Source: an uncultured virus (IMG/VR IMGVR_UViG_2865147665_000001) | Lineage: Duplodnaviria; Heunggongvirae; Uroviricota; Caudoviricetes | Length of the DNA stretch: 64,000 bases | IMG/VR virus record: IMGVR_UViG_2865147665_000001 | Span: 1 to 64,000 of that record | Direction: 5' to 3' (one strand) | Shown here: in pieces, positions 5,134-60,700 of the stretch | Position numbering within the stretch: position 1 is the stretch's first letter | Layout: the number at the start of each line of letters is the position of its first letter | Made by a program: the position numbers and the translations under genes | The notes under the pieces: model-generated | What the model saw: the letters and a program-made list of their open reading frames with translations, nothing else | What the model was told of the DNA's origin: nothing | Databases searched by the model: none

Positions 5134-5141
5134 GATCCCCC

Positions 5142-5778: not shown

Positions 5779-5787
5779 AGTCTTCTC

Positions 5788-39556: not shown

Positions 39557-40918
39557 TCACCCCACCCTCACGGTGGCCGTGAAACGGTCGCAGACCGCAG
39601 TACGGTCTGCGGTGACATCACCGGACGCCGGACGGTACTGACATCCCACTGAGACCTGGTGGCCGTCGATCAGTCTCACCTGCCAGCGGGTCACCGACCG
39701 GCTGGTCGACTCCTCGTAGTCGACCGGTGACCGTGAGAGCACGCGAACTCCCGGCACTTTCTCAAGCGCTGTGAGCATCCGGGCGTCCAGCTGGTCCTGG
39801 GTACCCACCGGTGCCGGTTTAGCGGCCACGAGGATCCTCATGTCCGGGTCCTCCGACATCCAAATCTCCCGGTTCCTCGTGGCCTCACTGATGGTCCAAC
39901 CTTCCAGTCCCACGGTGACAGGCACATCTGCGCGGGACACCCGGGGGTCGTCTCCGTGACTGCCGTGCCGGACGGGGTCATTCCATTCCCCGGGCGTGAC
40001 ACTTTCAGCAGACGCAGATGTCGGGGCCAGTCCTTCCCCGTCCCCCCGGGGTTGTTCTCCCACTGTCGTGGAACCGACCGTTCCCGCCGGCGGCCATGTT
40101 GATCCTGCCTGTGTCTGCACACCGTCCGGTAGCGCACGGTCACCGCTGGTGGCCTGTCCGCCTGTCGCTGACACCACGCCGAAGACGCAGAGGACCAGGA
40201 CCACCAGTCCTGTCATCACAGCGGCCACTGTCCGCACACGGTGTCCGGCACTCCCGTCGTCGACGCTGACATCCGGGTCTGACGGTCTGGACAGGTAAGC
40301 CGGGCGGACGTGTGCGGTGTCCCGGTCGGCGGACCTGCTGCCGGAGCGCGATCCATCGGAGACGGAGGCCTCGATTTCCTCGAGTTCGGCGCGTGCCATC
40401 GCCAGGTCCGCGGCGATTTTCACGGCGTCGGTGGGGTCCACGACCCTGGCGCGCAACCCGACCGATCTCAGGTAGGACGCCGTGACCGCTGCCTCATCTC
40501 CGACGACGATGATGTCGGTGTGGGGTTCTCCCACTCCCCAGGGGAACCTGGTCCGTGGGACAAGTGGGTTGGGACTGGTCAACTCGGGGTCGGCGGCGCG
40601 GGCCGTGAGAACCTCCGACACCAGTTCCCGCACCGCCTCCAGCCGGGTCAGCGCTATACCGGTTCTCCTCCATTCCGGTGAGTCACGAGGCACAGCACCG
40701 GCGCTGACGGCCGTGCCGTCGATGTCACCACTGACGGCCGTGCCGTCGATGTCACCACTGACGGCCGTGCCGTCGATGTCACCACTGACGGTGAATCCGC
40801 TGAGCAGGTCAGTCACGGCCGATCCGTTGACCAGGATCCCTGATTCCACCAGTGCCAGTGCCCGGAAGACTGTCCCGGTCTGCGACCCTGTGGCTCCGGA
40901 CGGACACTGTTCAGACAT
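39557..40918 (-). CDS. T7SS-associated protein (Rv3446c-like)
   Basis: Overlaps eccC stop; TM; WQVRLIDGHQVSVGCQ C-terminus. Confidence 0.75.
   Translation of the reverse strand: MSEQCPSGATGSQTGTVFRALALVESGILVNGSAVTDLLSGFTVSGDIDGTAVSGDIDGTAVSGDIDGTAVSAGAVPRDSPEWRRTGIALTRLEAVRELVSEVLTARAADPELTSPNPLVPRTRFPWGVGEPHTDIIVVGDEAAVTASYLRSVGLRARVVDPTDAVKIAADLAMARAELEEIEASVSDGSRSGSRSADRDTAHVRPAYLSRPSDPDVSVDDGSAGHRVRTVAAVMTGLVVLVLCVFGVVSATGGQATSGDRALPDGVQTQAGSTWPPAGTVGSTTVGEQPRGDGEGLAPTSASAESVTPGEWNDPVRHGSHGDDPRVSRADVPVTVGLEGWTISEATRNREIWMSEDPDMRILVAAKPAPVGTQDQLDARMLTALEKVPGVRVLSRSPVDYEESTSRSVTRWQVRLIDGHQVSVGCQYRPASGDVTADRTAVCDRFTATVRVG
40704..40791. repeat. 27-bp in-frame tandem repeat, 3 copies plus a partial (VSGDIDGTA)
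   Basis: ctgacggccgtgccgtcgatgtcacca at 40704, 40731, 40758. Confidence 0.95.
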
Positions 40919-43250
40919 GCTCGTCCTTCCCTTCTGTTTCCGGTTCCTGTTCCGACCGCCGGTCCGCTGAACTCCGGTCTGCCCCGGGGATGTCGCCCGT
41001 TCCGGTGACGGCGATCTGCAGCTCCTCCACCGTGTTCTGTACGAGGAGTCCGCGTCCCGGTGGCCGGGGACACAGGGCCTGTCCTGCGACTGGCCCGTCC
41101 TCTCGCGGCGCGGACAACAGGATCCAGGCTGTACTGTCGCGGATGCCCTGGAACAGGGGTGTGTAGGTGCTGCGGCCCAGCACAGCGCTCCGTCTGGCGG
41201 TGACCAGATGCAGGCCGATGTCTGCGGCGTACGGGAGCAACGGGACGACTGTTTCCAGCGCCGCGGCCAGCTCCGTGGAGTGGTCCAGGTCGTCGACGAC
41301 GACAATGTAGTCGGGTCCGGACCACCAGCTCCGGTTTCTCAGGGACTCCGGACTCAGCTCGGTGACGTCGCCGGGAATCCTTGCGGTGAGGACGGCCGTC
41401 ACCTGCTCCAGTTCAGTGACGAAGCCCACCGGGGACCGGTATCCGGGAAGGCCTAGGAGTCCTCTTCGAACGTCGGTCACCAGCAGCTCAACCTGGTCGG
41501 AGCGGTGAAGGTTCCGGGTTGCAAGATCGGTGACCACAGTGCGCAGGGCGGTCGTCGCCCCGGAACCTGATCTCCCCGCCACAGTCAGATGAGGCAGGGT
41601 CCGCAGATCCCAGTACACCGGTCCCAGGTCGGCGCCTCCGAGCCCGAGGAGAACCCCGTCCGTACGCCTGTCATCACCGTGTCCGTCTCCCCGTCTCTCC
41701 ACCGCTTCCGCAGTTTCCACCGCCTCCGAAGCCTCTGCCACCACGGCACGGTAGGTGACTGACGCCGGCAGTACCCGCATGGTTCTGACGGTGTCCCCAC
41801 GGGCCGCGCTGACGCGGCGGGCGTGTTCCACGGCTTCAGCGTCCGACCACGCCATCTGTACCTGATGTCCGGTCCAGGACACACCCCTGCCCGGGGCATC
41901 CGGAAGACTGCGTTGGATGTCCCTGTGGTTGGACTCTCCCGGAGGCAACCGAAGTTCCAGCTGCCCGACGAGCAGGTCACGCAGACTGGGCCGGAAGGTC
42001 CACCGCAGTGCGGTGACGACGACATGGACCCCTCTCTCCAGACCCCCTGCGACGAGTGCGGAAAGCCGCCTGTCTGCCTCCCCGAGAGCGTCGACCCCGT
42101 CCACCAGCAGTATCCGGTGGGTGACCCCTTCCGGAGGATCCTGCTCAAGCTCATCGAACATTCTGTCGACCAGATCAACCCCGACAACCGCAGCAACTTG
42201 CGGCAACCGGGCCAGACCGGCCAGTGAACCACCCGGGTCGAAGACGTAGACGACCACTCCCGGGTTGCCGAGGACGAGACCGACAGTCAACGTCCGCAGC
42301 ACGGTTGTTTTCCCGGTCCCCGGTGATCCGACGACCGCCCAGTGGCGTCGTCGCAGGTCAACTTCACAGGGTTTCTGCACACCGTCGAAGGGAAGGTCTT
42401 CCAGACCGACAGGTACCGGTCGGAGATCCGGGCCCGTACCGTCGGTTCCGGTACCCCAGGTTCGGTTTTCTCCGAGCAGCAGACTGGCCGGCAGGTCGAC
42501 AGGCAACGGTTCCAGCCAGATCGGGTTGAGGTTGGGCCCCGCGAGACGGTCGATGACCAGTTCCATCACCGTTCCCGTCGATTCCTGCCCGGCCCCCAGC
42601 TCTCTGACCGGTCCCCGGTCCGCCGGAGTCTGCGGCCCGGACACATAGGCGGATCTGAAGCGTATCTGACCTGCTCCTCCCGCCGATTCGGCGAGAATCG
42701 CCTCCCCCGGGGAGGCGGGAAGCTCATAGGCTGCCGGTGAACCGATGAGAGCCCGTGACTCCGCCGCCGAGAAGGTCCGCAACGCCACCCGGTAGCTCAG
42801 GTGCGACTCCAGACCACGTAGCCTGCCTTCCTCCAGGCGTTGGCTGGCGAGGAGGAGGTGGAGGCCGAGGGAGCGTCCCAGTCTGCCGATCGCCGCGAAC
42901 ACCTCGGCGAACTCTGGTCTTGTAATCAGGAGTTCGGAGAATTCGTCGACCACGACCAGCAGCGACGGCATCTCCCCGGGGCTGGTGCCGTTGAAGTCCG
43001 TGGCCGTGGTCATTCCCGCCGCCCGGAGCTTCTCCTGCCGCCGGTGCATCTCGCCGAGCAGGGCGTCCTTCATCCGGTCGACGAGCAACGCCTCCTCCGA
43101 AAGGTTGGTGATCACCGCTGATGTGTGGGGCAGACGCTCCATTCCGGAGAATGCTGCCCCTCCCTTGAAGTCGACGAGCACGAAGTTCAGTTCGCTCGGC
43201 GGATGATGGTGCGCGAAGCTGGTGACCACGGACCGGAGGAACTCGGATTT
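40911..43250 (-). pseudogene. eccC: 3' part of the T7SS FtsK/SpoIIIE ATPase EccC, interrupted in Walker A of ATPase domain 1
   Basis: Frame begins KSEFLRSVV; VDFKGG, VVVDEFSEL, GSPGTGKT, GRSGSGAT; TM region and GxxGxG missing; in-frame stop 14 codons upstream. Confidence 0.88.
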
Positions 43251-43301: not shown

Positions 43302-43455
43302 GGGGGATCAGGGGGATGTTTTCACTCAAAACGTAGAAATCCGGAAAAACGTATTACTGGGGATGCAACAACTATCAGTGCGATATTGGGCCTCTACCCA
43401 CTAATGTGTTTTTCCGAAAATTCATAGAGGGGCCGAAAATGGCCCCCGATCCCCC
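43302..43455. repeat. Imperfect inverted repeat with ~60-bp arms (candidate replication origin)
   Basis: gggggatcaggggg...cggaaaaacgtattactggg versus cccactaatgtgtttttccg...cccccgatccccc. Confidence 0.75.
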
Positions 43456-43503
43456 TAACGCCCCCATGCCGCAAGCACCGGCACCGCCTATCAGCACTAC
43501 CTA

Positions 43504-43533: not shown

Positions 43534-43539
43534 TGTCGC

Positions 43540-43856: not shown

Positions 43857-44058
43857 CATGAGTGCTCCTCTAGTCACTCTTCAAGAAGCCGTAGAAGAAG
43901 GTTACGGCGCCTACTCAACACTTCGCATGTGGATTGCCCAGGGCAAACTACCTGCTTATAAAACAGGCTCGCGCATCAAGGTGCGGCGTGAGGACCTCGA
44001 TGCATTGCTGACCCCCGTTGGCCCGGATGGGCCTTGCCCGCAAATCGTGGACAGGTAA

Positions 44059-44949
44059 CTAAGCTGCCTCAGGTTCCTCAGCAGCAGGTTTGTTGAACAG
44101 ATTCATTTCGAACTCCACCGGCGGCACATACCCCAGCGACGAGTGCAGCCGTCGTCGGTTGTAGACCACTTCAATCCAGCGGGCCACAGCCTGCCGAGCC
44201 TCGGCCCGGGTGTGCCAGGTGTACCGGTCGTAGAACTCGGTCTTCAGCGTCGCCCACACACTCTCGGCCATCGCATTGTCCCAACACACCCCGGTCCGGC
44301 CCATTGACTGCAGTGCCTGCAGGTCCTGGCACACCCGGTGCATCTGTTCGCTGGTGAACTGGCACCCACGATCAGCGTGGAACACCACATCAACGGGCAG
44401 CTCACCGCGTATCGTGTGGGCCATACGCAGGGCTCGTTCCACCAGGTCAGTGTGCATGTGGGTGTCCATCGCCCAGCCGATGATCCGCCGGGAATGCGCG
44501 TCGGTGACCGCCGCCAGATACACCCAGCCTTCACCGGTGCGCAGATAGGTGATATCGGAAATCCAGCACCGGTCGAGCCCGCCTTTGTCCCAGCAACGTC
44601 GTGCCCGGTCGGGGATCGCGTGGGTGTTGACACCAGGCAGCGTGGTCACCGGGGAGAACTTCTTGGGACTGATCCCCTCCAAGCCCTGGCGCAGCATCGA
44701 CTTCGCCACGGTCTTGCGGTCAACGACCGTCCCCTCACGAGCCAGCTGGGCATGCACCCGGGGAGCGCCGTAGACCTCGTCGGACTCGGTGAACACCGTC
44801 CGGACCTTCGCGTCGAGGTCGTCGCGCTCACGGCGTCTGGGCGATGGTTCTCTCGCTTGCCTGGCCGCCCAGGCATAGAACCCAGACCGGGACACTCTCA
44901 GCAGGCGGGCCATACGGGTGACCTCGTAATTCGCCTTCTCCTGCGCCAT
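44059..44949 (-). CDS. IS3 transposase OrfB (DDE)
   Basis: WISDITY, HADRGCQF, DNAMAES. Confidence 0.95.
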   Translation of the reverse strand: MAQEKANYEVTRMARLLRVSRSGFYAWAARQAREPSPRRRERDDLDAKVRTVFTESDEVYGAPRVHAQLAREGTVVDRKTVAKSMLRQGLEGISPKKFSPVTTLPGVNTHAIPDRARRCWDKGGLDRCWISDITYLRTGEGWVYLAAVTDAHSRRIIGWAMDTHMHTDLVERALRMAHTIRGELPVDVVFHADRGCQFTSEQMHRVCQDLQALQSMGRTGVCWDNAMAESVWATLKTEFYDRYTWHTRAEARQAVARWIEVVYNRRRLHSSLGYVPPVEFEMNLFNKPAAEEPEAA

Positions 44950-45278
44950 CAGTTCGAACCGTTCGTCGGTGGCTGCTTGGCAGCGAAGAAGGCTGCTGCT
45001 TTTCCCAGAAACTCATTGTCCTTGTGCAGATCAGCGACCTGGCGGCGCAGTCGTTTGAGTTCGGCGCGTTCATCCAGGTCCAGCTCACCGGTGGGTTCAC
45101 CGGCGTCTTTAGCGCGTTCGGTGGCGACCCACTTGCCCAAGGTCTGGGCACCGACGCCGAGTTCGCGGGCGACTTCGGCGATGGTGCGTCCGGTGTCGAT
45201 GACCAGTCGGGCGGCTTCGTGTTTGTATTCCGGGCTGAAGTTTCGCCGTGGTCGCCGGCCAGCGGTGTTGTCGGTCAT
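44949..45278 (-). CDS. IS3 transposase OrfA
   Basis: HTH IAEVARELGV; LGKAAAFFA; GGGAAAAG frameshift window near 45000. Confidence 0.93.
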   Translation of the reverse strand: MTDNTAGRRPRRNFSPEYKHEAARLVIDTGRTIAEVARELGVGAQTLGKWVATERAKDAGEPTGELDLDERAELKRLRRQVADLHKDNEFLGKAAAFFAAKQPPTNGSN

Positions 45279-45447
45279 GGTGACATCCTCTCGTGCGGGA
45301 CGGATCCCGCTAAATCGGGTGTCCACTCAACGAGGGTAGGGCCAGGATCCCATCGATGTCGCCATTGACGAGCTCGTTTCGGCTGCACCTACCTTGTCGT
45401 CCGAGCAACGCTCGCGTCTGGCATCCCTCGTAGGGGGTGCCTAAGAC

Positions 45448-48400
45448 ATGACGGAAGAGAAGAACCCCGCCGTTGCTAGCGACGGGGCAAAAGAAGCGGA
45501 TCTGGGTAATGCTTCTGAAGTTGATGCTACCCACTCCGCTTCCTCCGCGCCAGTCCAATCTGTACTTGACCAGCGACTTTCTGCGGAGCACTTCACCGAG
45601 CTTCAGACATCGGCGATCAGCGACGATGTGATCGAGGCGTCCGGTGCGTACACGGCCTGGGAGAGGGATGATTTGCCCGATCCATTGCGATGGGTCGGTG
45701 ACCGCGACGGTGCGCTGCCCGCTCTGGTGTTCCCACTGACCGAGGCCGGTAAGGGTGAGACCTGGCAGGCCAAGCCACAGCCTGGCTTTGTCACGCTGAC
45801 CGACGGTCGCTCACCCAAATACATCGGCCCCAGCAAGGACTCCGGCTACCCCACCCCAGCACTCATTGAGCGTCGGGCTGTGGATGATACGACCCGCCGT
45901 GTCCTCGTGGTCGAGGGCACGAAGCAGGCACTGGCTGTGATGTCGGCAAGCGATGAGAGCACTGCGGTCTACGGCCTGTCGGGAATCACGTCCTGGATGG
46001 GTGGCGATGATGGCCCTAGCTCGGCGTTTCAGCTTGTCGGTGGCTTGCCGGTCTATATCGTCGCCGACGCTGACGCCGCGAGGAACCGCAGGGTCTATGA
46101 CGGGGCCGCAGGTATCGGCGAGCTCTGTCGACAGTGGGGCGCGAGCCCCGTCCGGTTCGTTCGCTTCCCCGGTAGCGGTAAGCAGGGCATCGACGATGTG
46201 CTTGGCGGTATTGATTCCCCCGCGCAGCGGGAGAAGATGCTGGAGCTGTGGGTCAAACAGGCCGAGGATAAGCCTGCCAAGAAGCGGCCCAGCTTGAGCA
46301 GCACGATACCTACGAAGGATACTTCGCAGGGGTCTGACGGATCGGCCAAGCCGATTATTAGCACGGACCTGCCCGACGACCAGATCTGGGACGCGGTAGA
46401 CAACGCGGTATATGAGAAGTTCGCTGGTAAGCGGCTTTTTCGCACCGACCACAAACTCGTGTGTCTCGTGCATCGTGATGGACGCAAACACCTCATTCCG
46501 GTGAGTAACGCTCTGGCGGTGGATTTGTCGGCGCAGGCGATTCGGATTGTTCACTCCACGCAGACGAAGTCGAAGGTTCGGGCGCTGTCTGACAAAGACG
46601 CGGCTACCGTTTTCAACGGCGCACGTGTCGGACGGTATCCCCGCATCGAGGGCATCGTGGAGACGCCTGTGCTCACCCCGAGCGGCAGGGTCTTGTCCGA
46701 GCCCGGCTACGACGAAGAGACCGGCCTGTTACTCGACTTGTCCGATGATCTCGACGGCTTCCACGTGCCGGATGACCCGTCACAGGAAGAGGTCACAGCT
46801 GCCCGCGAGCTCCTGGAGGAGGTCTACGCCGACTTCCCGTTCAAGACGGAAGCTGACCGGACCCGTGCTATCGGCATGGTACTCACCCTGCTTGTCCGCC
46901 CGTCGTGCGAGACCTCGCCAATGCACGTCATCTCGGCTAACACACCGGGCACAGGCAAGGGCCTGTTGCTGTCTGCCGTGAGCATGATTGCTCACGGCTA
47001 CGGCGCGCGGGTGCAGAAGATGCCCCATCACGATGAAGAGATGCAGAAGGTACTCACGTCGGCGCTTCTCGCTGGTCAGACGATGCTGATCTTCGATGAG
47101 ACCGGTGAGGGGATCGGTAGCCTGTCGCTGGCCGCCATGCTGACCTCCACCTACTACGAGGGTCGTATCCTCGGCGAGTCCCGGCACTTGTCGGTGAAGA
47201 ACTCAGCCTGCGTTTTTGCAGCCGGAAACAACGTCGCGGTGAAAAAGGATCTTGGACGTCGAACAGTGATGGTCGAGATGAAGACGCCGTTGGCGAGCCC
47301 AGAAGCTCGCGACGACTTCACACACCCGGACCTGTTGGTGTGGGTCAAAGACAACCGACGGGCCCTGCTGGAAGCCGCGTTCACACTCATCCGGGCCTGG
47401 ATCGTTGCTGGTGAGCCTGCCCCGGCACCGGGCCAGCCGGTGGGTAGCTTTGAGGACTGGTACCACGTGGTGGGTGGCGTCCTTGAGCACGCTGGTAGGC
47501 GTGACCTCATGTTTGGCGTGCGCGAGCAGCGGGCACAGCACAATGAGAGCGAACTTGAGGACCTGGCGCATCTGCACTGGGTGAGCGTGAACTTTGATGA
47601 GCCCTTCCGTGCTTATGACGTGGAGTGCAAGATTCGCGAAACGCAGGGTTTTATCCCGCTCCCGTCAGACATCCAGACCCTGGACGAGGTGACCGCGCAG
47701 CGGTTGGGTCGGGTGTACACGAAGCTTCAGGACCGTAATCTTGCTGGTTTCGTCGTCAAGATGGCCGGGATGGTCAACCACACGAAGCGCTTTAAGGTGA
47801 CCTATCTCGGCCCGGACGGGAACGGTGGTGGTCCTGGCGGCCTCAACGACCCGGACGGTGGTAGCCCCACTCCCCCTCCTGCACCTGGCGGTAGTGCTGT
47901 CGATGCCGACAACACTGGCGCATCCACGGTGGTATTCGACCTGGAGACCGCTAGCGCCGATGGGTTGCACACGACCGATGACCCTGCGTGGGTTCGCTTG
48001 GCGGCGTATCAGGTGGATGGTGGCGAGATCAGGACAACGACGGACATCGCCGGTGAGCTGCTGCCGGTTCTGCGAAACGCGGGCACGATTGTCGGGCACA
48101 ACATCACACATTTCGATCTCCCTGCGCTGGAGCGCCTATATGGCTTTGCTCCGTCGCCCGAGCAGCGCGTCGAGGACACTCTCGTGCTTGCCCGTCTCGT
48201 GGACCCTCCCACGACGGGAAAGAAGTACCACCTCGACGCTGTGGCTACCCGCCTCGGTCTCGGCGGTAAGTTGCTGGCCGATGGTGACACGGCGCTGAAG
48301 GCTCTGGCCAGCCAGCACGGTGGTTTCGACCAGATTCCAGTCGATGATCCGCAGTATGTTGCGTACGCCCGACAGGATGTGCGTGCCACGGCAGATGTCC

Positions 48401-49620
48401 ACTGTGCGCTCGTGAAGCGTGTACCGGATGCGGAGTACGTGGCCTATGAGCATGAGGTCGCTCGCGTGCTGGCTGGCGTTGAGTCGCGGGGTATCCGCGT
48501 CGATGTCGATCTCGTTGAAGAAACGCTGGCCGACGAAGACACAGTGAAAAACGGCATCCGTGGCTGGCTCGTCAATACCGTCGGCATCCCGGATGAGGGT
48601 AAGGCCCCGTGGGCGACGAAGGCCGGTAAAGAAGCTATTCAGTCCTACCTTCAGCGTTACGGGGCCCAGCTACCGTTGACGAAGACGGGTGCGCCGACAA
48701 CGACAAAAGACGCCTTCAGTGAGCTTGCCGAGCAGCACTCTGACTCGCGTGAGGTCGTCGAAGTCTGCGAGAACATGGTGGCGCTATTGGAGACGCGCAG
48801 CCCGGCGAAGACGGTGAAGAAGTACCTGCGCAGTGATCGGGTGTTCCCGTCCATCCAGCCGTCGCAAGCCACGGGTCGGTTGAGTACGACGAAGCCGGGC
48901 ATGACGATCTTTGGCTCGCGTGGTGAGCGCTTGCTTGCGCAGCGGGCGATGATCCTGCCCGAGCCGGGCGAGCGGTTGCTGTCTGTCGACCTGTCGCAGA
49001 TTGATGCTCGCTGCATGGCGGCTGCTGCCGGTGATGAGGCCTACGCGGCGCTGTTTGCCGAAGGTCGTGATGCGCACACGGAAATGGCGGTGCGGGTGTT
49101 CGGTGATCCCGGTCGTCGCCCGGATGCGAAGGCGCTCGCGCACGCGGCGAACTACGGCATGGGAGCGAGATCCTTTGCCGCGCATGTCGGTTGCAGTGTG
49201 GCCGAAGCGGAGCGGATGCTGTCGAGCCTTCATCTCGAATTCCCTCGCCTCGAAAGTTTCAAGGAACAACTGCGCAAAGGCGCGGAGACCTCAGGGTATG
49301 TGACGACCGGTTTCGGTCGACGTGTCGCTGTTAATCGGGACAAAGCGTACACCCGAGCGCCTGCCGCTTACGGCCAAGGAACGGCTCGCGACGTATTCCT
49401 CCACGGTGTGCTTGCCATGCCCGAGGACGTGCAACGAAGGATCCGCATTTTCGTCCACGACGAGGTTGTTCTGTCGGTGCCAAAGGACCGCGTTGAGGAG
49501 GTGCGACAGTGTGTGCTCGATGCCTTCTCAAGTGTCGCCCTTCCCTCCGCCGACGGCGTGCACGTTCCAGTCCTCGCGGACAGTGCGGGGCCGGGTCGGG
49601 ATTGGAGTGAGTGCAAGTGA
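45448..49620 (+). CDS. TOPRIM primase - P-loop helicase - 3'-5' exonuclease - family A DNA polymerase fusion (1390 aa)
   Basis: VVEGTK/DAD/GIDD; NTPGTGKG/LIFDE/GNN/RR; FDLET/GHNITHFD/YARQD; TGRLS, DLSQIDAR, RPDAKALAHAANYG, VHDE. Confidence 0.9.
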   Translation: MTEEKNPAVASDGAKEADLGNASEVDATHSASSAPVQSVLDQRLSAEHFTELQTSAISDDVIEASGAYTAWERDDLPDPLRWVGDRDGALPALVFPLTEAGKGETWQAKPQPGFVTLTDGRSPKYIGPSKDSGYPTPALIERRAVDDTTRRVLVVEGTKQALAVMSASDESTAVYGLSGITSWMGGDDGPSSAFQLVGGLPVYIVADADAARNRRVYDGAAGIGELCRQWGASPVRFVRFPGSGKQGIDDVLGGIDSPAQREKMLELWVKQAEDKPAKKRPSLSSTIPTKDTSQGSDGSAKPIISTDLPDDQIWDAVDNAVYEKFAGKRLFRTDHKLVCLVHRDGRKHLIPVSNALAVDLSAQAIRIVHSTQTKSKVRALSDKDAATVFNGARVGRYPRIEGIVETPVLTPSGRVLSEPGYDEETGLLLDLSDDLDGFHVPDDPSQEEVTAARELLEEVYADFPFKTEADRTRAIGMVLTLLVRPSCETSPMHVISANTPGTGKGLLLSAVSMIAHGYGARVQKMPHHDEEMQKVLTSALLAGQTMLIFDETGEGIGSLSLAAMLTSTYYEGRILGESRHLSVKNSACVFAAGNNVAVKKDLGRRTVMVEMKTPLASPEARDDFTHPDLLVWVKDNRRALLEAAFTLIRAWIVAGEPAPAPGQPVGSFEDWYHVVGGVLEHAGRRDLMFGVREQRAQHNESELEDLAHLHWVSVNFDEPFRAYDVECKIRETQGFIPLPSDIQTLDEVTAQRLGRVYTKLQDRNLAGFVVKMAGMVNHTKRFKVTYLGPDGNGGGPGGLNDPDGGSPTPPPAPGGSAVDADNTGASTVVFDLETASADGLHTTDDPAWVRLAAYQVDGGEIRTTTDIAGELLPVLRNAGTIVGHNITHFDLPALERLYGFAPSPEQRVEDTLVLARLVDPPTTGKKYHLDAVATRLGLGGKLLADGDTALKALASQHGGFDQIPVDDPQYVAYARQDVRATADVHCALVKRVPDAEYVAYEHEVARVLAGVESRGIRVDVDLVEETLADEDTVKNGIRGWLVNTVGIPDEGKAPWATKAGKEAIQSYLQRYGAQLPLTKTGAPTTTKDAFSELAEQHSDSREVVEVCENMVALLETRSPAKTVKKYLRSDRVFPSIQPSQATGRLSTTKPGMTIFGSRGERLLAQRAMILPEPGERLLSVDLSQIDARCMAAAAGDEAYAALFAEGRDAHTEMAVRVFGDPGRRPDAKALAHAANYGMGARSFAAHVGCSVAEAERMLSSLHLEFPRLESFKEQLRKGAETSGYVTTGFGRRVAVNRDKAYTRAPAAYGQGTARDVFLHGVLAMPEDVQRRIRIFVHDEVVLSVPKDRVEEVRQCVLDAFSSVALPSADGVHVPVLADSAGPGRDWSECK

Positions 49621-49695
49621 GCGTCCAATTTGGCACACGCGGCCCCCCAGTGTTCGTGGCCACGTCCGTTAAGCACACAACCTAAGGAGATAGTG

Positions 49696-50061: not shown

Positions 50062-50063
50062 TC

Positions 50064-50420: not shown

Positions 50421-50429
50421 GGGGCGGCA

Positions 50430-50600: not shown

Positions 50601-50620
50601 GGCGTGAGGAGTGATGAAGC

Positions 50621-50998
50621 ATGAATAACGGACGACGAATGACAGTGCGCCTCGGCGACTCCGAGGACGAGGTGGTGCGCAGCACCGCGTCGGCTCTCGG
50701 CGTCACCGATAGCGAGGTTGTACGACTGGCGATCATTGCGATGGCGGATAGGTTGCCTGTCGGTGTAGGTGAGCAAGTGGCGGCTCCTCCGGTGCCGCCT
50801 GAAGTGGTGGAGTTGCGCGAAGCGCTCGACCGCTTGGTCGCTGAGGTGTGCCGCGTCGGCGTGAACATCAACCAGATAGTTCGTATCTGTCACGTGAATG
50901 GGTGGTCTGACGACGAACTGCCGGGGCTTCTTGGTGTCCCCGGTGTGATCGACGATCTCGTAGGCCACGTGCGGGAGGCAGTGGATCGTGTCTGTTAG
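50621..50998 (+). CDS. mobC: MobC relaxosome accessory protein
   Basis: RHH N-terminus; RVGVNINQIVR. Confidence 0.88.
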   Translation: MNNGRRMTVRLGDSEDEVVRSTASALGVTDSEVVRLAIIAMADRLPVGVGEQVAAPPVPPEVVELREALDRLVAEVCRVGVNINQIVRICHVNGWSDDELPGLLGVPGVIDDLVGHVREAVDRVC

Positions 50999-52463
50999 CA
51001 AGGTTCAGCGCTCGAGGGATGCTGCCGCTGCCGTGATCTACGCCGTCTACGGAACGAAGAAGGCTATGAAGGCTGGCTCGGTGCGTGCTGCTGCTGTCTC
51101 CGTTGTCGGTCCACGCGGAAGTAACCCCGTGGTGTGGGTGATGGAAACTCGGTCGCGAGTTCAGGAGTCGGTGCAGCGCCGTAACGAGACGATCAACATC
51201 ATCCAGTCGTTTAGTCCCGACGAACTAGACCCTGACAACCCCTTGGACGTGGAGAAGGCGCATGCGGCGGGCCTCGCCTTGGCCGCGAAGATGGCTCCTG
51301 ATTGCGACGTGGTCGTCGCTACTCATACCGATACCGCACATGTTCACAACCACATCATTGTTGCCAACCATGATCGTGGAACTGGGAGGGCCGCGCCGAA
51401 GGCGGTAGGCAACGCGTGGCGTGTCCGCGAGACCAACGACGACGTGATGGAGGTCTTCGGTTTGAAGGTGCTTGGTCGTGATCCGGTGTCGTTGTCGCGC
51501 GACGAGCGGGTGGCGCAGGCGAAGGGCGTTGACATTGACGGTTCAGACTTGTCGCTGTCGGAGTTGACACGCGAGACCTGGCGTGAGTTTGCCCGTGCTC
51601 GCATCGAAGAGTTGTTAGAAGACGACCGCGTAATCGCTGCCCTCGACATCGACGGCGGTGGTGGTGTGGAGCCTGGCTTGGAAGTGATGGAAGAGATCGC
51701 CTTCGAGTATCACCTGTCCTTCTCACGCAAGGGGCGGGGCAAGCGCACGCGCAAGAGCGAGCGGTCGTCGTTCGCATTGGTCGGCGACGACGGCAAGGAG
51801 CTGCGCTTGACCGATCGCAACGGCAAGGGCAGCTCTAAGGCGGCTACTGCCGGGTCTCGACTCGGCTCTGACTACACGATGGATGGGCTTCGCGCTCGGC
51901 TACATGAAATACACGCAGAACGACTGATTGATGGAATGGAGATTGACAACAATGGTGGACAACAAACGACGGCAACGGACGGACAGCACGGAGTTGCTGA
52001 ACAAGTTGGCCTCGCAGCTGACGGCGCTAACGAAACAAGTCGAGGACGTGAAGGCTCTGCCGGTCGGGATGCCCGAGGACGTGGAGCTGCACTTGGCGAG
52101 TTATCAGAAGCAACTGACGGACTTGAACAAGCGCATGGAGTCCTTGCAGCGTTCAACAGTGGGGACGAAGGAATACGAGACGGCGATGGCTCAAGCGACG
52201 GCCTCGATGAAGTCGATGGCGGAGATCGCGGCCGCGCTGCCGGTGGCGATTCAGCGCCAGCACGAGGGACTGCAGAAGTCGGTGACCGGGATCGTGGCGC
52301 CGCTAACGTCGATGGGCGACTTGCTGAAGACCGTGCTCGAACTCGTCGAAGGGCCGCTGAGTCTCAGCGACGACGCAGTGGAGAGGCTGAGCGTCAGCGT
52401 CGAGAAGCGCTTGAGTCCGATGGTCCTCGACCACCTGAAGGCGACTATGGACCGGACTTTTAG
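50988..52463 (+). CDS. Relaxase (MOB_P-like)
   Basis: N-terminal Tyr, IIQSFSPDE, HTDTAHVHNHIIVAN. Confidence 0.9.
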   Translation: MSVSKVQRSRDAAAAVIYAVYGTKKAMKAGSVRAAAVSVVGPRGSNPVVWVMETRSRVQESVQRRNETINIIQSFSPDELDPDNPLDVEKAHAAGLALAAKMAPDCDVVVATHTDTAHVHNHIIVANHDRGTGRAAPKAVGNAWRVRETNDDVMEVFGLKVLGRDPVSLSRDERVAQAKGVDIDGSDLSLSELTRETWREFARARIEELLEDDRVIAALDIDGGGGVEPGLEVMEEIAFEYHLSFSRKGRGKRTRKSERSSFALVGDDGKELRLTDRNGKGSSKAATAGSRLGSDYTMDGLRARLHEIHAERLIDGMEIDNNGGQQTTATDGQHGVAEQVGLAADGANETSRGREGSAGRDARGRGAALGELSEATDGLEQAHGVLAAFNSGDEGIRDGDGSSDGLDEVDGGDRGRAAGGDSAPARGTAEVGDRDRGAANVDGRLAEDRARTRRRAAESQRRRSGEAERQRREALESDGPRPPEGDYGPDF

Positions 52464-52901: not shown

Positions 52902-53468
52902 CTATTCTTTGACCTCATGCAGCGCGCGATAGATGGTTTGCCGCGAGACGTTGAAGGTGCGTGCCACCGATGCGACGCTCTCGCCGCTGTCGACCAACTT
53001 CGCGGCCTGCTGCTTCTGTTCCATGCTCAACTTCGGCTTCGGTCCTGCCACTCGGCCTTCAGCCCGGGCATGGGCCACACCTTCACGGGTGCGTTGGACG
53101 AGAAGGTCCCGCTCCCACTCGGCCAGGCTCGCCATAACGTTGACTACTACCTTGTCGGCTGGTCGGCTGGTGTCGAGTGCAGGCTCCAGGACGCGGACGT
53201 TGATGTCCCTCTCAGCGAGGTCAGCGATGGTGTTGACAGTTTCGGCGAGGTTACGGCCCAGGCGATCGAGACGGGTGACCACCAGGGTGTCATCAGAGCG
53301 CATGTAGGCCAATGCGTCGTCGAGACCGGGGCGGTTCCAGTTGGTGCCGGAGATAACGTCCTCGTAAATGCGTTTAGGGTCACAGCCCGCGTTAACGAGC
53401 GCTTCACGTTGGGTGTCGAGTGACTGGCCCTGGCGGGCTGTTGAGACGCGGGCATATCCAATAAGCAT
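52902..53468 (-). CDS. Resolvase/invertase (small serine recombinase)
   Basis: IGYARVST, VTRLDRLGR, C-terminal HTH. Confidence 0.95.
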   Translation of the reverse strand: MLIGYARVSTARQGQSLDTQREALVNAGCDPKRIYEDVISGTNWNRPGLDDALAYMRSDDTLVVTRLDRLGRNLAETVNTIADLAERDINVRVLEPALDTSRPADKVVVNVMASLAEWERDLLVQRTREGVAHARAEGRVAGPKPKLSMEQKQQAAKLVDSGESVASVARTFNVSRQTIYRALHEVKE

Positions 53469-53470
53469 GT

Positions 53471-56400
53471 TTACTCACCTGTCAGCTCTTCCTCGGTCAC
53501 CGTGAGGTCAGCAGGCAGCACGCCATCGATGATGTAGGTGCGCAGGAGCTTGTCCAGCATCGCACGAACCTTGAACTTCGACACTGGTGCGCCAGTGACC
53601 TCGGTGAAGTAGGCGGTAGCCAAGTCGAGGTCAATGGATGCCTTGAGGTCATCGAAACGCCCGTACTCGTTGATGGTTGCTGCCGTAACACGGCTGTCGA
53701 GTATTCGGCGCAATAGTCCCGTATCCAGCCCCAGTCGCTCATGAAGACGTGCCAGCTGCCGGTCACGCTCGGTGATGCGGTACTCGTTGATGTAGTCCTG
53801 CACTGTCTTGCCCGGTTGCAGGGCCACGTCGCCTGCCTGGAGATCATGCAGCCAACGGTTAGCGTAGCGCTGGTCGTCTTGGCTTAGGCGGGCGAAACTA
53901 TCATGTAGCTGCTCCAGCAGATCATCGAGCATGTGCTCTGCCACGCCGTCCTGGAGTGCCTTGAGGTACTTCTCAAACTTGCTGTTGAGGTACTCGGCAT
54001 CGATGCGGTCGGTGTCGATGTGCGTGATGTGCACGTCAATATCGAAGGGCGCGTCATCTGCCCCACCGGGTGGGTCAGTTGGATCGCCTCCCTCCTTGCC
54101 AAGTTCCTTGTAACGGGTGAGCAATGTGGTGAAGACGTCCTCGGTGAGCGTTACCACGATAGGTTCAGGGAGTGCATCGAAGTAGTAGGTGTCCTTCTCC
54201 CAGGTAAAGCCCTGCACCTGTGCTGCCTGGAGTTCGCGGTACATCCGATTGAAGGTCTTGGCGAACTCGCCCTGGTCAGCCTCAGAATCGGGCAGCTTCG
54301 AGAAGTCCGTCTGGCCGGTCGCCGGGTCAGTGAACAGCACTGTAATGATCTCAAAACATTCATTGATGGCCTTAAGGTGCTCGTCGAGGTGGTCCACGAA
54401 CAGGCCGAAAGGCTTGTCACCTGAATACAGCTTCACCGCACGGTCGATGTTGTTCTTCATCGTGTGTGGCTTGCGGTAGTAGCGGATGGAACCGAACGGC
54501 TTTTCCGGGCCGAAGATGCGGTTGGTGCGTGAAAAGGCCTGGATAATGGACTCGTATTCGATAACCTTGTCCATGTAGAGGGTGCTGAGCCACTTGGAGT
54601 CGAAGCCGGTGAGCATCTGGTCCACCACGATGAGTAGGTCAATGTGCTGGCTACGGTCATCGAGGAAGGCCTTGGTGTTGTAGGGCGCCTTGTGGGCCAG
54701 GCGCTTGGAAACATCCTTCTTAAACTCATCGTGAGTCGGCATGGTGAAGTGCTGGCCATAGGCAGCGTTGTAGTCGCGGAGAATCTCCAGCAAACCGTCT
54801 TCCTTGAACAGCTGACTGTCACCAGTGTTGTCGATATTAGGATCAAACAGCGCCGTGACCTTAATGTGCGGGTACTGCGCCTTGAAGATGCGGTAGTACT
54901 CCACTGCTTCAGGGATGCTGGAGGTCGCCAGGATGGCATGGAACATACTGCCCCGACTCAACTGTGCCCAGTGCTCGTTAATGTCGCGGGCAACCGCCTG
55001 GCGGTGGTTGTCTTGACGGTACTGAGTGATAGGCAGGTAGTCTTCGATACCCTTGGCGACACGCTTGGTACCACTGTCGGTGTCTGTCTCATAGACGCTG
55101 GCCATCGGGACCTGGTCCTTGTCCATAAACTTGTAGTAGACAGCCGCCTTCTTGGGGTCCGCCAGAGCCTCGTCCACGGACGTGGCCTTGGCCTCCTGGA
55201 GAGCAACCACAGTGCGCACATCATGCGCCCGGAAGGTTTCCACCATCTCCGGGTCGAAGCCGAGGACGTTACCGTCGCGAATACCGTCGGCAATTGAATA
55301 GCGGTGCAGCTCATTGCCAAACAGCGTGGTCGTGGTGGAGTGCTTCTTCTGGTTCTCGTCGTGGATGGGCGTGCCGGTGAACCCAAAGAACAGCGCGTTC
55401 GGCAAAGTGCGCTTAATGGTCGCGAGCATGTCACCAAAGGTGGTGCGGTGTGCCTCATCGACGATGAACACCACACGCTTGGAGCGGATGATGTCCAGGT
55501 CGGCTTTCTTGACGGAATCAGCATTAACCCTGCTCATCTTGTGCAGGGAGGTCACGATGAGGGTGGAGTGCTTGTTCTTGAGCAACGTTATCAACGTGGC
55601 AGCACTGGAGGTATCTTCCACGGCGATGCTGTCGCCACCGTAGCTTTCGTAGTTCTCCAACGACTGCGTGCCCAGCTCCACACGGTCGAGGAGGAACACT
55701 ACCTTGTCGGCGTTGTGGGAGTCTGCGATAAGCTGCGCGGTCTTGAAGCTGGTAATCGTCTTGCCAGAGCCGGTGGTGTGCCAGATGTAGCCACCGAGTT
55801 GGTCACCACTGTCCCAGTCGTGACGGTCCACACGGTCAGCGATACGAGAGGCTGCGTAGTACTGGTAGGAACGCATGGCCAACAGGTTGCCAGAGGCCCG
55901 GTCGGCGACAGTGTAGAAACCAATGAGCTGGTGCGCCATCGGAATAGACAGTAGTGCTCGTGCCACATCGTCCCACTGGTTGACCGGCTCGTTGTTGAAA
56001 TCCGCCCAGTGGAAGAAGTAGTCCGGGTTGAACTTAGCTGACCCTGGGTTGGCGAAGTAGAGTGTTTCCTCCGGGGTCATCGCCACAAAGATTTGCACCA
56101 GAGAGAAGATGCCCTGGTAGACGCCCTCGTGGGCGTACTTGGCTACCTGGTTGGCGCCTTGCGAGACAGGCACGCCTGAGCGCTTGAGTTCGATGTGGAA
56201 GACCGGCATACCGTTGATGAGCAGCATCAGGTCGCCGCGTCGTTTCGGCAGCAGCTCATCAGCGGTCTTGAAACGAGGCTGGACGGCAATCTGGTAGCGC
56301 GACTGGCCACCGGCAATCTCCAGGCGGTCATATATTTTCAGGCTGACTTCCACGCCGAAGTTGTGGGCCTGCGGCGCATCACGGGTGATGGTGACTGTGC

Positions 56401-56662
56401 GACCGTTGATGAACTCGTTGAGAGCCAACGGCGTGCGCAGCACGTTGATCTGCTCGATGATTTGCGCCATCTCGCCCTCGGTGAGTGGCACATCGCCCAG
56501 CAGGTCACGGCCCCGGTTGTTGGCGTAGAGAATGTTGGCCCAGTTGTCGATGAGCTGTTGTTCCGTCGGGTAGCGCAGTAGCTCATCGCTCCAACCGTGG
56601 CGGGTGAGCAGGTCGATGAGCGCCGCCTCGAACTCAGCCTCGCAGCGAAATGATGTGGTCAT
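53471..56662 (-). CDS. hsdR: Type I restriction endonuclease subunit R
   Basis: HIELKR, HTTGSGKT, DEAHR, FTGTP, QAFSRTNR. Confidence 0.96.
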   Translation of the reverse strand: MTTSFRCEAEFEAALIDLLTRHGWSDELLRYPTEQQLIDNWANILYANNRGRDLLGDVPLTEGEMAQIIEQINVLRTPLALNEFINGRTVTITRDAPQAHNFGVEVSLKIYDRLEIAGGQSRYQIAVQPRFKTADELLPKRRGDLMLLINGMPVFHIELKRSGVPVSQGANQVAKYAHEGVYQGIFSLVQIFVAMTPEETLYFANPGSAKFNPDYFFHWADFNNEPVNQWDDVARALLSIPMAHQLIGFYTVADRASGNLLAMRSYQYYAASRIADRVDRHDWDSGDQLGGYIWHTTGSGKTITSFKTAQLIADSHNADKVVFLLDRVELGTQSLENYESYGGDSIAVEDTSSAATLITLLKNKHSTLIVTSLHKMSRVNADSVKKADLDIIRSKRVVFIVDEAHRTTFGDMLATIKRTLPNALFFGFTGTPIHDENQKKHSTTTTLFGNELHRYSIADGIRDGNVLGFDPEMVETFRAHDVRTVVALQEAKATSVDEALADPKKAAVYYKFMDKDQVPMASVYETDTDSGTKRVAKGIEDYLPITQYRQDNHRQAVARDINEHWAQLSRGSMFHAILATSSIPEAVEYYRIFKAQYPHIKVTALFDPNIDNTGDSQLFKEDGLLEILRDYNAAYGQHFTMPTHDEFKKDVSKRLAHKAPYNTKAFLDDRSQHIDLLIVVDQMLTGFDSKWLSTLYMDKVIEYESIIQAFSRTNRIFGPEKPFGSIRYYRKPHTMKNNIDRAVKLYSGDKPFGLFVDHLDEHLKAINECFEIITVLFTDPATGQTDFSKLPDSEADQGEFAKTFNRMYRELQAAQVQGFTWEKDTYYFDALPEPIVVTLTEDVFTTLLTRYKELGKEGGDPTDPPGGADDAPFDIDVHITHIDTDRIDAEYLNSKFEKYLKALQDGVAEHMLDDLLEQLHDSFARLSQDDQRYANRWLHDLQAGDVALQPGKTVQDYINEYRITERDRQLARLHERLGLDTGLLRRILDSRVTAATINEYGRFDDLKASIDLDLATAYFTEVTGAPVSKFKVRAMLDKLLRTYIIDGVLPADLTVTEEELTGE

Positions 56663-56671
56663 GACAGCTCC

Positions 56672-57910
56672 TTAGATGAACATCCGTTGCAGCAGCGCCG
56701 TCTTGGCTTGCTTGAGGGACTCGATGTACTGAGCCTCAGCGGCAATGAGGGAATCTAGCCGGGTAAACACTGCGCCGATGGCCTGTTGTTCTTCGAGGGT
56801 GGGTGGAATGAAGACTTCCAAGTTCTTTACTAAGGCGCCGGACAGATTACCTTGCCCGCCTTGCAGGTACGTGTCAGTGATGTTCTTCTTGTTCATCCTT
56901 AGCCATGCCACTAGGTAGGCAGCGTTAAACCCATCACGTGGAATTAGCGCGAGAATCGCCTGGTTAATGGCACCTTCAATCTTAGCTAGGCTTACTTCAC
57001 CCGCAGTCGCACCATAAAGCGCGTAGAGCACCCACCCTGGCTGAACCATCTTGGCAGAACTGAAATGAAGCCCTGCCTCAGTAAGGGTTAACTCAGTGAA
57101 TGAGCTAGAAATTTCTGAGGAACGGATAAAGGGGATGTCCCCACCGTAGAACGCGTTTGTGCCAACAGTAGGTGTTCCCCCAGAAAACGAGTCTGCGATT
57201 GCTCCTACCTTAACGACATCCCACTCACCGTCGAATCCCTCCAGCCGCAGCTCGGGCACTGTCTGGCCCTCCTGCGGGAACATGCACTGCATGAGCGCCG
57301 TCTTGGCCTGCTGCAGCGCCTTGTGCTTGAGCATGTGCTGGTTGATGGCCGCGTCGAGATTGGTGAAGATAGCGCCGATGGCCTGCTGTTCTTCGAGGGT
57401 GGGTGCAAGCGTAACGGGAACTTCCAGGAAGTCTTGAGCAGATATGTTGAGCAAGCCGTGGTTTCGCGCGCCTTCAGCGGAATTGGCTTCTACAAACCTA
57501 TGCCAGCTGGAAGTTTCAAAGAAAGTGACTAGGAAATCTCCATCAATGGGTGGATGTTCCAAGAGTCGAAACACAATGTAGAGAGATGACAGGACGCCAC
57601 GGTCGTACTTGTCGAGACGTTTTACAGTTCCAACAGGATGTCCGGCTGAAAAGCTTTTGTTATATGCAAATTCACCATTCTCTACGAGCAGATAGTTTCG
57701 GAGATTCGCACTGGCCACTCGATTGTTGAAGTAGGTGATCTGATCCACCAGACCGTACTGAGCAGAGATAGTAAGCGGTAGGGTGCTTTGCAGGTCTGTG
57801 TTCTTCCGCTGCACCCTTTCAGTGAAGGTGTTCAGAGGCACAGTCTCCCACTCACCATCGAAGCCCTCCAGCCGCAGTGCGGGTACGTTCTGCTTAGGCA
57901 TCACGACCAC
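56672..57910 (-). CDS. hsdS: Type I specificity subunit
   Basis: Two TRDs bounded by repeated LRLEGFDGEW and PTLEEQQAIGA. Confidence 0.95.
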   Translation of the reverse strand: MVVMPKQNVPALRLEGFDGEWETVPLNTFTERVQRKNTDLQSTLPLTISAQYGLVDQITYFNNRVASANLRNYLLVENGEFAYNKSFSAGHPVGTVKRLDKYDRGVLSSLYIVFRLLEHPPIDGDFLVTFFETSSWHRFVEANSAEGARNHGLLNISAQDFLEVPVTLAPTLEEQQAIGAIFTNLDAAINQHMLKHKALQQAKTALMQCMFPQEGQTVPELRLEGFDGEWDVVKVGAIADSFSGGTPTVGTNAFYGGDIPFIRSSEISSSFTELTLTEAGLHFSSAKMVQPGWVLYALYGATAGEVSLAKIEGAINQAILALIPRDGFNAAYLVAWLRMNKKNITDTYLQGGQGNLSGALVKNLEVFIPPTLEEQQAIGAVFTRLDSLIAAEAQYIESLKQAKTALLQRMFI

Positions 57911-60509: not shown

Positions 60510-60700
60510 AATCGCTCGATTATGGACACCTCTGGACGGAGAGGGTCGAGACGTGACTCGCAACGCCCGAAAGATGTTCCACAATCGCTGTTCTGGTTCT
60601 CCATTGTACCATAACTGACCAATTGACGATTATGGAACATATAGTTTCGCTTGTTGCGGTAACTACCCTGCACGGTGTCCGACCTTGTGCGAAGATTCCT

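Follow-up and report, generated by a model that had tools for sequence, protein, structure and literature searches.

A Pas55-type fusion of primase, helicase and proofreading polymerase on a putative integrative mobilizable element of Corynebacterium

We examined a 64,000-nucleotide stretch of DNA (positions 1 to 64,000 of the IMG/VR record IMGVR_UViG_2865147665_000001, assigned to an uncultured virus; hereafter the window) and found that one of its open reading frames (ORFs), P0001, encodes a DnaG-type primase, a D5-like superfamily 3 (SF3) helicase and a proofreading family A DNA polymerase in a single polypeptide chain. This protein, which we call the replicase, is a fusion of the type represented by Pas55 of Actinoplanes phage phiAsp2; its architecture is therefore not new, having already been described in 2016. 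The new details are its setting, a serine-recombinase- and relaxase-bearing element in eccC (a gene of the T7SS, or type VII secretion system), and a candidate replication origin that recurs in related loci. By analogy with better known initiator-helicases, it is probable that the replicase of this element is a Pas55-type single-chain enzyme that replicates it. The replicase and its parts are as follows.

45448..49620, plus strand: replicase ORF P0001, 1390 amino acids, comprising primase, SF3 helicase, linker, 3'-5' exonuclease and family A polymerase
45550..46317, plus strand: DnaG-type primase catalytic (RNA polymerase) domain including Toprim, without a zinc-binding domain, residues 35-290
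46345..47817, plus strand: D5-like SF3 helicase, residues 300-790, made up of an N-terminal collar (~300-480), an AAA+ ATPase (~481-650) and a C-terminal domain (~651-790)
47818..47925, plus strand: Gly/Pro-rich disordered linker, residues 791-826 (~788-826, or nucleotides ~47809-47925, when taken slightly more broadly), with a predicted local distance difference test score (pLDDT) below 50 at 791-820
47926..48447, plus strand: DEDD 3'-5' exonuclease, residues 827-1000, with FDLET, GHNITHFDL and YARQD
48448..49617, plus strand: family A DNA polymerase, residues 1001-1390, with motifs A, B and C intact and without a 5' nuclease domain

The reading frame of the replicase is intact, with 1390 codons and 0 internal stops. 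A preliminary description of this DNA had placed primase, helicase, exonuclease and PolA domains in this order within the one 1390-residue ORF, and the motifs, profiles and structure models all bear this out; each motif that it named lies where it had been placed, and PolA motifs A, B and C are indeed complete. The primase carries VEGTKQ (residues 155-160), ADADAA (206-211) and GIDDVL (247-252), and the helicase has the Walker A motif NTPGTGKG (498-505, nucleotides 46939-46962), the Walker B motif LIFDE (547-551) and motif C, AAGNN (591-595). The exonuclease motif FDLET occupies residues 830-834 (nucleotides 47935-47949), and the three polymerase motifs are DLSQIDAR (motif A, 1181-1188), RPDAKALAHAANYG (motif B, 1224-1237) and VHDE (motif C, 1336-1339). 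Across an alignment of 57 family sequences the primase residues E156 G157, D207 D209 and D249 D250 and the helicase residues G503 K504, D550 E551 and R604 R605 are invariant or near-invariant, as are the motifs of the exonuclease and polymerase. The first Cys of the replicase is found no earlier than residue 227 and residues 1-150 include only 2 His; because no Cys lies ahead of residue 227, the protein has no zinc finger, as had been proposed from the translation. Residues 1-34 are disordered in the AlphaFold2 (AF2) model.

An orthologue that is 93% identical to the replicase is encoded in the genome of a Corynebacteriaceae bacterium (G001; L001:10001-14173). Between the two, the ratio of nonsynonymous to synonymous divergence (dN/dS) is 0.24 in the primase and 0.08-0.15 in the helicase parts, and both parts are under purifying selection. 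The exonuclease-polymerase half is almost identical in the two genes, with a synonymous divergence (dS) of 0.003-0.02 against 0.2-0.4 for the primase-helicase half, and this contrast places a recombination break near the linker. Several homologues likewise join an N-terminal half that is ~38% identical to that of the replicase to a polymerase half that is ~60% identical.

In profile searches, it is only the C-terminal part that is identified with confidence. The Pfam family DNA_pol_A (PF00476) matches the replicase with an E-value of 2.4e-41, and DNA_pol_A_exo1 (E 0.0044) and DUF3854 (E 0.0036) match below the cut-off. In a profile search of the PDB, Klenow is matched with an E-value of 6.5e-48 (profile positions 845-1397), and only family A polymerases are found among the best 60 of the 77 matches of the family profile. 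Among PHROGs, phrog_16213, annotated 'DNA primase', covers residues 44-280 (E 3.5e-25); three families, two of them unnamed and one annotated 'DNA polymerase/primase', match residues 350-712; and phrog_403 matches in the exonuclease part (E 2.2e-12). The bacterial Pol I models NF004397 and TIGR00593 score far below their cut-offs (154.2 bits against 720 and 115 against 600, respectively), and the NCBIfam Pol I match is limited to profile positions 359-889. Since the Pol I model is matched only from position 359, the replicase has no 5' nuclease domain.

A phmmer search of PDB sequences with the N-terminal 820 residues returned 0 matches at E <= 10. Because the PDB sequence searches gave no match there, the N-terminal half was folded and compared structurally. 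The AF2 model of residues 1-820 was built with the 57-sequence family alignment and has a pLDDT of 86.4; residues 35-290, modelled alone, reach 94.8. The primase model matches DnaG catalytic cores (Foldseek, 1dd9, E 2.2e-6). In VIA structural comparison it aligns with 2au3_A at a Z-score of 15.0 (root-mean-square deviation, rmsd, 4.8; 215 residues aligned) and with 5guj at 14.8, with weaker matches to the T7 primase fragment 1nui (12.5) and to Twinkle 7t8b (12.3). For residues 300-790 the Foldseek matches are AsfvPrimPol, MPXV E5, D5, NrS-1 CTR, PriRep1 and SaPI5, and the top VIA match is SaPI5 PriRep5 (7ola_C, Z 15.7, rmsd 7.1, 375 aligned, model residues 300-777), along with Vaccinia D5 (8apl_A, Z 14.1) and 7pds_A (Z 12.8 over model residues 299-792). 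Alignments to T7 gp4 and Twinkle that extend beyond the primase part have an rmsd of 15-21 Å. The C-terminal domain of the helicase (~651-790) consists of helices followed by a beta-hairpin in the AF2 secondary structure and is possibly a winged helix.

The PDB searches also returned weak matches to Pol theta polymerase domains. These matches, and the fact that the gene adjoins type I restriction-modification (R-M) genes and ArdA, could be taken to mean that the protein is a helicase-polymerase fusion for defence or repair, like Pol theta or an enzyme of a defence island. However, the similarity to Pol theta does not extend beyond the common family A fold, the N-terminal half pairs a primase with a replicative-type SF3 helicase, and the phage copies of the gene sit in replication modules; on these folds and contexts we regard a defence or repair function as extremely improbable. 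Another PDB entry, 9qhs (a 1142-residue 'putative DNA polymerase I'), is, going by its entry description, a UDG-PolA fusion of unrelated architecture.

Pas55 (NC_005885, YP_024841) was found by tblastn of phage records, with 93% coverage. BLASTP joins the replicase and Pas55 in a single collinear alignment (452 of 1442 positions identical, 31%, E 3e-177, query 43-1389 against 8-1412). The domain order is the same in both proteins, the length being 1415 residues in Pas55 and 1390 here. The relevant sections of Kazlauskas, Krupovic and Venclovas 2016 (PMC4889955) describe Pas55 in silico as an SF3 helicase fused with a DnaG primase and PolA, and cite it as one of two helicase/primase/polymerase fusions. 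The other, gp55 of Lactococcus phage 1706, unites an SF3 helicase with an AEP primase and PolB, and by this published description its primase and polymerase families differ from those of the replicase. The preliminary description had not recognised the architecture as characterised. In fact the replicase does match a known replicase family, the Pas55 type; what holds of the claim is that this family is described in silico only, as far as the literature searched shows. No bench study of a Pas55-type fusion was found there, although papers elsewhere could exist, nor was any further mention of a DnaG/SF3/PolA fusion beyond PMC4889955. A paper on PolA-SSB primases of mobile elements (PMC10061031) does not, in the sections concerned, treat this architecture. 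The genomic contexts differ: Pas55 is a phage gene situated between an SF2-type helicase gene and terminase genes, whereas the replicase is encoded on a serine-recombinase, relaxase-bearing element without virion genes.

Other replication proteins resemble the replicase in part. Streptomyces phage Xkcd426 encodes the halves in the same order as gp53 ('DNA primase', 732 residues) and gp52 ('DNA polymerase I', 643 residues); in split pairs of this type the two genes lie 94 nt apart and the products are ~30-33% identical to the replicase over the matched parts. The parallel drawn in the preliminary description with apicoplast PREX and with T7 gp4 and gp5 stands as regards functional logic and falls as regards kinship. 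T7 gp4 plus gp5 and apicoplast PREX and Twinkle also combine a primase, a hexameric helicase and a family A polymerase, and the primase domain fold is common to T7 gp4, Twinkle and the replicase. However, the helicase of T7 gp4, PREX and Twinkle belongs to SF4 (RecA-type, 5'-3'), whereas that of the replicase is an AAA+ SF3 helicase, D5/SaPI-Rep-like; furthermore, T7 gp4 carries a zinc-binding domain, which the replicase lacks, and the T7 polymerase is a separate protein.

The Rep proteins of SaPI elements, including PriRep5 (7ola, 7pds), are likewise initiator-helicases of mobile elements and belong to the D5-like SF3 group. PMC9371898 presents SaPI5 PriRep5 as a hexameric, self-loading initiator-helicase of 3'-5' polarity and states that the C-terminal winged helix of Rep binds oppositely oriented iterons on either side of an AT-rich region. 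SaPI Rep has no polymerase, is only 9-10% identical to the replicase in structural alignment, and is served by an origin downstream of rep, whereas the candidate origin described here is upstream of the operon. Alpha protein of phage P4 contains, in this order, a DnaG-type primase, an SF3 helicase and a C-terminal origin-binding domain (PMC4889955, in its passage on alpha), and shares with the replicase the order of primase and helicase. The gene order of the P4 annotation (ori, excisionase-like regulator, replicase) also recurs here; unlike the replicase, alpha has no polymerase. A P4-family primase model was not among the 9 NCBIfam families listed at E <= 0.1. The cyanobacterial proteins CyRepA1/2 (PMC10079941), by the description given there, carry a DUF3854/Toprim-like domain followed by a helicase and experimentally support plasmid replication; unlike the replicase, they have a DEXDc helicase and no polymerase.

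We then consider how widely the fused form is found. Homologues are not always separate ORFs; they are mostly fused, and split forms exist. All three parts are present in order in 117 of the 120 homologues listed, from a total of 199 at E <= 0.001. In IMG/VR they share one open frame at 27 of 39 loci, the others being split or cut by contig ends, and 4 of the 5 annotated loci are phiAsp2-like, genes for a RecE-like exonuclease and for a phrog_16 helicase lying upstream and the terminase downstream. When the N-terminal half was searched against 1.84 billion representatives, 20010 matches were returned, and the best 150 of these were classified as 41 triple fusions (1088-1566 residues), 60 proteins with primase and helicase only, 48 helicases with other N-termini and 1 helicase with polymerase. 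Matches occur in 16 of 321 species genomes from the genus of G001 (11 of them with open frames of 1384-1493 amino acids) and in 5 of 401 in a sample of the family around it; a single-protein locus search of genome contigs gave 2 loci. None of the 107 matching PLSDB records (0/107) covers at least 80% of the replicase, so that no full-length plasmid-borne copy was found in PLSDB. Metagenomes from food production, compost, wastewater and digesters, belonging to 16 studies, contain near-identical sequence, and 20 of 24 rows include all or part of it.

Fused and unfused proteins interleave in a FastTree phylogeny built on 109 rows of the primase-helicase half, and the starred branches force at least 15 changes between the two states, some 'unfused' rows possibly being truncated gene calls. 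These forced changes identify the linker as a frequent point of fusion or fission; the replicase of the window sits in an all-fused clade of 14 rows. The linker is spanned in assembled sequence: a contig of 6184 nt from an RNA library extends over 46662-52844 and crosses it. Three loci in other species carry broken or split copies. In L040 (G524, 5428-11144), the exonuclease and polymerase parts lie ~1.4 kb apart; L041 (G444, 2059-6344) has the primase-helicase part in one frame and the polymerase part in another; and L042 (G575, 8398-10770) has only the N-terminal half, with one TGA.

The complete IMG/VR record has 65562 bases and is classed 'provirus', and it is a composite of a prophage, chromosomal ESX genes and a separate element that contains the replicase. 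Compared with G001, identity steps from ~0.8 to 1.0 at ~43250 and drops at record position ~64510. From these steps, and from the two halves of eccC that lie on either side, it follows that the element, as delimited by sequence comparison, is ~21.3 kb long (~43250 to record ~64510) and is inserted in eccC. The features of the element and its flanks are listed below.

40911..43229, minus strand: left flank lying outside the element and consisting of the 3' portion of chromosomal eccC (EccCa positions 470-673 plus EccCb)
43302..43464, no strand assigned: candidate replication origin, inverted G5 iterons around a palindrome
43858..44027, plus strand: excisionase-family helix-turn-helix (HTH) gene, 3' end cut off by an insertion sequence (IS) (TIGR01764, E 5.9e-10)
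44028..45344, minus strand: IS3-family insertion with TG...CA ends and a 3-bp duplication, GGA (orfA 44949-45326, orfB 44059-44949)
45345..45445, plus strand: displaced 3' end of the HTH gene
50621-50998: small conserved ORF just upstream of the relaxase gene
50988..52463, plus strand: MobA/VirD2-type relaxase gene (PF03432, E 1.7e-17), 1.4 kb downstream of the replicase
52902..60584, minus strand: cargo, namely a resolvase (52902-53468) and the type I R-M genes hsdR, hsdS and hsdM
60693-62155: ISL3-family insertion between hsdM and ardA, with an 8-bp overlap at the joint
62345-62935, minus strand: ArdA
63011 to record position 64507, past the end of the window, minus strand: large serine recombinase
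Record positions 64507-65562 (L043:1508-2563): right flank, the 5' part of eccC (EccCa positions 20-247)

The element begins with a 600-nt non-coding region, followed by the excisionase-family HTH gene, the replicase, small ORFs, the relaxase, the resolvase, the type I R-M genes, ArdA and the recombinase. VirB4, VirD4 and FtsK-type families were not found among the element ORFs scanned, the FtsK-type ORF to the left being chromosomal eccC. With a relaxase present and conjugation channel genes not found, the element reads as an integrative mobilizable element separate from the prophage. A relaxase follows the replicase in 8 of the 14 lineages compared, and an HTH_17 gene was detected directly upstream of the replicase in 5 of 14. 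The eccC junction is found beside the replicase operon in 6 of the 14 Corynebacterium lineages, with the same 24-nt block at the left end of the element; the serine recombinase seems to target eccC, and excision might restore this gene. No report of eccC as an integration target was found in the literature searched. In G001 the element occupies the same place in eccC, is ~18.6 kb long and lacks both insertion sequences. On one side of it lie rplM, a pair of WXG100 genes and eccC, and on the other the eccC 5' part, EccD, EccB, mgtE, truA, rplQ and rpoA, a gene order that we take to be that of the ESX-4 locus. G001 also encodes its own 933-residue PolA, separate from the replicase.

The 'provirus' class of the record, and the fact that Pas55-like genes are phage genes elsewhere, raise the question of whether the replicase is the replication module of the adjacent prophage in the first 38.2 kb of the window. 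That prophage is siphovirus-like and complete within 1-38211, with endolysin, tail, head, terminase, repressor and integrase (36976-38211) genes and a tRNA-Leu at 32767-32842, and it is equipped with a replication initiator, SSB, RecT and RecE of its own. Some 5 kb of chromosomal ESX genes (WXG100, a GntR regulator, a Rv3446c-like gene and eccC) lie between it and the element. In G001 the element stands at the same site in eccC, and the 20 kb to the left of it show no similarity to the prophage. Membership of the prophage is contradicted by the element bounds and by G001, and we consider it very unlikely indeed. The placing of the gene in a non-phage integrative context by the preliminary description is upheld: the replicase is past the prophage integrase, in a separately bounded element that is free of the prophage in G001. 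Within the prophage, the first 71 residues of the small terminase subunit ORF (21449-22171) also match WhiB-like regulators, and this ORF may be a fusion or a merged ORF call.

The operon that contains the replicase is interrupted in the window. In the IS-free form (G001) the HTH gene encodes 88 amino acids and ends 3 nt ahead of the replicase ATG. The IS3-family insertion is absent in G001 and in contigs from all 4 of the public runs compared, and the ISL3-family insertion is absent in G001 and in contigs from 3 of the 4; parts that the contigs leave uncovered are uninformative, and rare forms are dropped by contigs. One may therefore ask whether the replicase is a silenced passenger in this genome, which would mean that IS3 has uncoupled the gene from its operon and that the element no longer replicates. 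The IS3 insertion cuts the HTH gene short and moves the promoter region out of place, ISL3 has also entered the element, and the contigs of all 4 runs have IS3-free forms. On the other hand, the ORF is intact with its catalytic residues in place, IS3-family elements can supply outward promoters, and the argument concerns expression in one strain and not the identity of the protein. We hold silencing to be improbable; it is also compatible with the other readings. A scan for the sigma-70 consensus found 0 promoter-like sites in 43200-51100, and Rfam had no match at E <= 0.1 in 43000-52600. A terminator-like hairpin (43825-43850) followed by T6 ends 7 nt ahead of the ATG of the HTH gene, and the ~150 nt ahead of this ATG (43709-43856) are ~72% identical in L002, L035, L037 and L038; hairpin and region together may serve the HTH-replicase operon as a leader or attenuator.

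The non-coding region at the left end of the element contains a nested repeat structure that is a candidate replication origin. Opposite two direct G5 motifs (GGGGGATCAGGGGGAT, 43302-43317) stand inverted copies of them at 43443-43464. The stretch between these outer iterons is 48% GC and holds a palindrome with 20-nt arms (43342-43361 and 43397-43416), the core of which, the 11-mer AAAACGTATTA, occurs once in the 64-kb window (0.04 expected) and is found at the same place in three other lineages. In 8 of the 11 lineages examined, the DNA upstream of the operon shows the nested design with both of its repeats, outer inverted iterons enclosing an A/T-rich palindrome; of the other three, one has the outer repeat only, one an inner-like palindrome only and one neither. 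This pattern depends neither on the integration site nor on the finding of a relaxase. SaPI origins have the same layout, with opposite iterons around an AT-rich centre (PMC9371898, in the section on origins). By analogy, 43302-43464 may be the origin and would then be bound by residues 651-790 of the replicase.

Two classes of iteron can be recognised. The G5 class accompanies N-terminal halves that are 52-62% identical to that of the window, and the class GCGG(C/A)AAACATA accompanies N-terminal halves that are only 37-49% identical. In 3 of the 4 lineages of the second class that were aligned in two halves, the polymerase half is still ~60% identical. On these comparisons, iteron class goes with divergence of the N-terminal half.

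SaPI Rep, P4 alpha and D5 provide the analogy for a proposed mechanism. The element would excise, and the helicase part would assemble as a hexamer at the iteron-flanked A/T-rich palindrome (43302-43464), perhaps via its C-terminal domain. The SF3 ring would melt the DNA and travel 3' to 5' on the leading-strand template, and the N-terminal primase domains would prime the displaced strand. The polymerases, tethered by the flexible linker of ~35 residues, would extend the primers, and the SSB of the host (the protein that binds single-stranded DNA), its ligase and its primer-removal enzymes would finish replication. A stronger form of this proposal is a one-gene replicon, which we put forward tentatively, as somewhat doubtful. 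Here the origin at 43302-43464 and the single ORF would suffice in Corynebacterium, given host SSB, ligase and primer removal. The enzyme would be a hexamer with six tethered polymerases and six primase domains; origin specificity would be set by the N-terminal half, which is swapped against polymerase halves at the linker; and amplification would follow an excision that restores eccC.

Several observations weigh against replication of the element by this enzyme. The preliminary description had called the replicase self-sufficient, and this cannot be upheld: SSB, clamp, ligase and 5' nuclease were not found in the replicase or in the ORFs of the element, and the protein is therefore a replisome core, not a complete replisome. 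The analysis shows the domain identities, the conservation of the catalytic residues, the family with its contexts and the bounds of the element; the oligomeric state, the polarity, the use of the origin and the replication of the element are inferred, and the enzymatic activities are predicted. The winged-helix reading of residues 651-790 comes from the pattern of secondary structure and from structural alignments of the whole chain, and hhalign gave a probability of 0.3% against P4 alpha, for which the template was a single sequence, with remote kinship still possible. Over the window the heptamer GGGGGAT is not enriched, with 10 occurrences against 12.5 expected, and is notable only for clustering at 43302-43455; the origin-like repeats could serve recombination, transfer or regulation instead. 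The IS3 insertion stands 103 nt upstream of the replicase start and splits the HTH gene, and it may cut the replicase off from its promoter. The RNA-library contig mentioned above is the sole RNA evidence and cannot show transcription. Finally, a relaxase was not found in 6 of the 14 lineages with either a relaxase query or a relaxase profile.

The relaxase bears more directly on another explanation, in which the replicase takes part in conjugative DNA processing, either by strand-displacement synthesis in the donor once the relaxase has nicked the DNA or by priming and copying the incoming strand in the recipient, as plasmid-encoded primases do. The MobA/VirD2-type relaxase gene only 1.4 kb downstream, and its recurrence behind the replicase in more than half of the lineages, are what this explanation would lead one to expect; the EGxxxA motif of the replicase also presumably resembles the EGYATA of conjugative-plasmid primases. 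Yet its nearest relatives beyond the genus are phage replication genes, close to which no relaxase lies, the iteron-palindrome module stays with the gene in the lineages where no relaxase was found, and a hexameric helicase with a proofreading polymerase is more than priming on the recipient side needs. We judge a conjugative role unlikely and favour replication of the element itself. In five of the lineages without a relaxase match, a protein of 452-613 amino acids is encoded after the replicase, at the positions below.

L034:5749-7482: protein of 452-613 amino acids
L035:13437-15278: protein of 452-613 amino acids
L036:13713-15071: protein of 452-613 amino acids
L037:4950-6710: protein of 452-613 amino acids
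L038:5411-7171: protein of 452-613 amino acids

These five proteins and two further ORFs match no Pfam family at E <= 1e-4, and none of the seven candidates matches a relaxase profile built from 7 lineages. The sixth lineage (G575) has only the N-terminal half of the replicase, followed by a Mutator-family transposase.

Among replisome cores of cellular type that are known from sequence, the most compact is a single chain that holds primase, replicative helicase and proofreading polymerase. The locus described here supplies an intact member of this family in a non-phage element with mapped ends, a recurrent candidate origin and IS-free natural variants. The candidate origin recurs across species in two iteron classes that track the N-terminal half of the protein, and a minimal replicon of ori plus one gene is thereby directly testable in Corynebacterium. 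Such a system could be of use for the study of the coupling of leading- and lagging-strand synthesis and as a compact orthogonal replication module. For the integrative elements of actinobacteria, the finding also adds to the known replication types RepSA, RepAM and Prim-Pol, which are named in the portion of PMC3218068 on which this comparison draws.

Some minor features of the element and its relatives were also noted. An ORF at 51928-52890 overlaps the relaxase ORF (50988-52463) in a different frame, and relatives of both stand in the same order in four other lineages; the overlapping ORFs are either one frameshifted gene or two genes. The hsdS gene varies between samples, with contigs from three runs replacing ~600 nt (56749-57353 and 57405-57846), and the HsdS protein of G001 is 67% identical to that of the window, against 99.7% for HsdR. 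In L035 (17222-19361), a MerA-like reductase and MerB are encoded a few kb downstream of the replicase, past an insertion sequence, and are possibly cargo of the element in that lineage.

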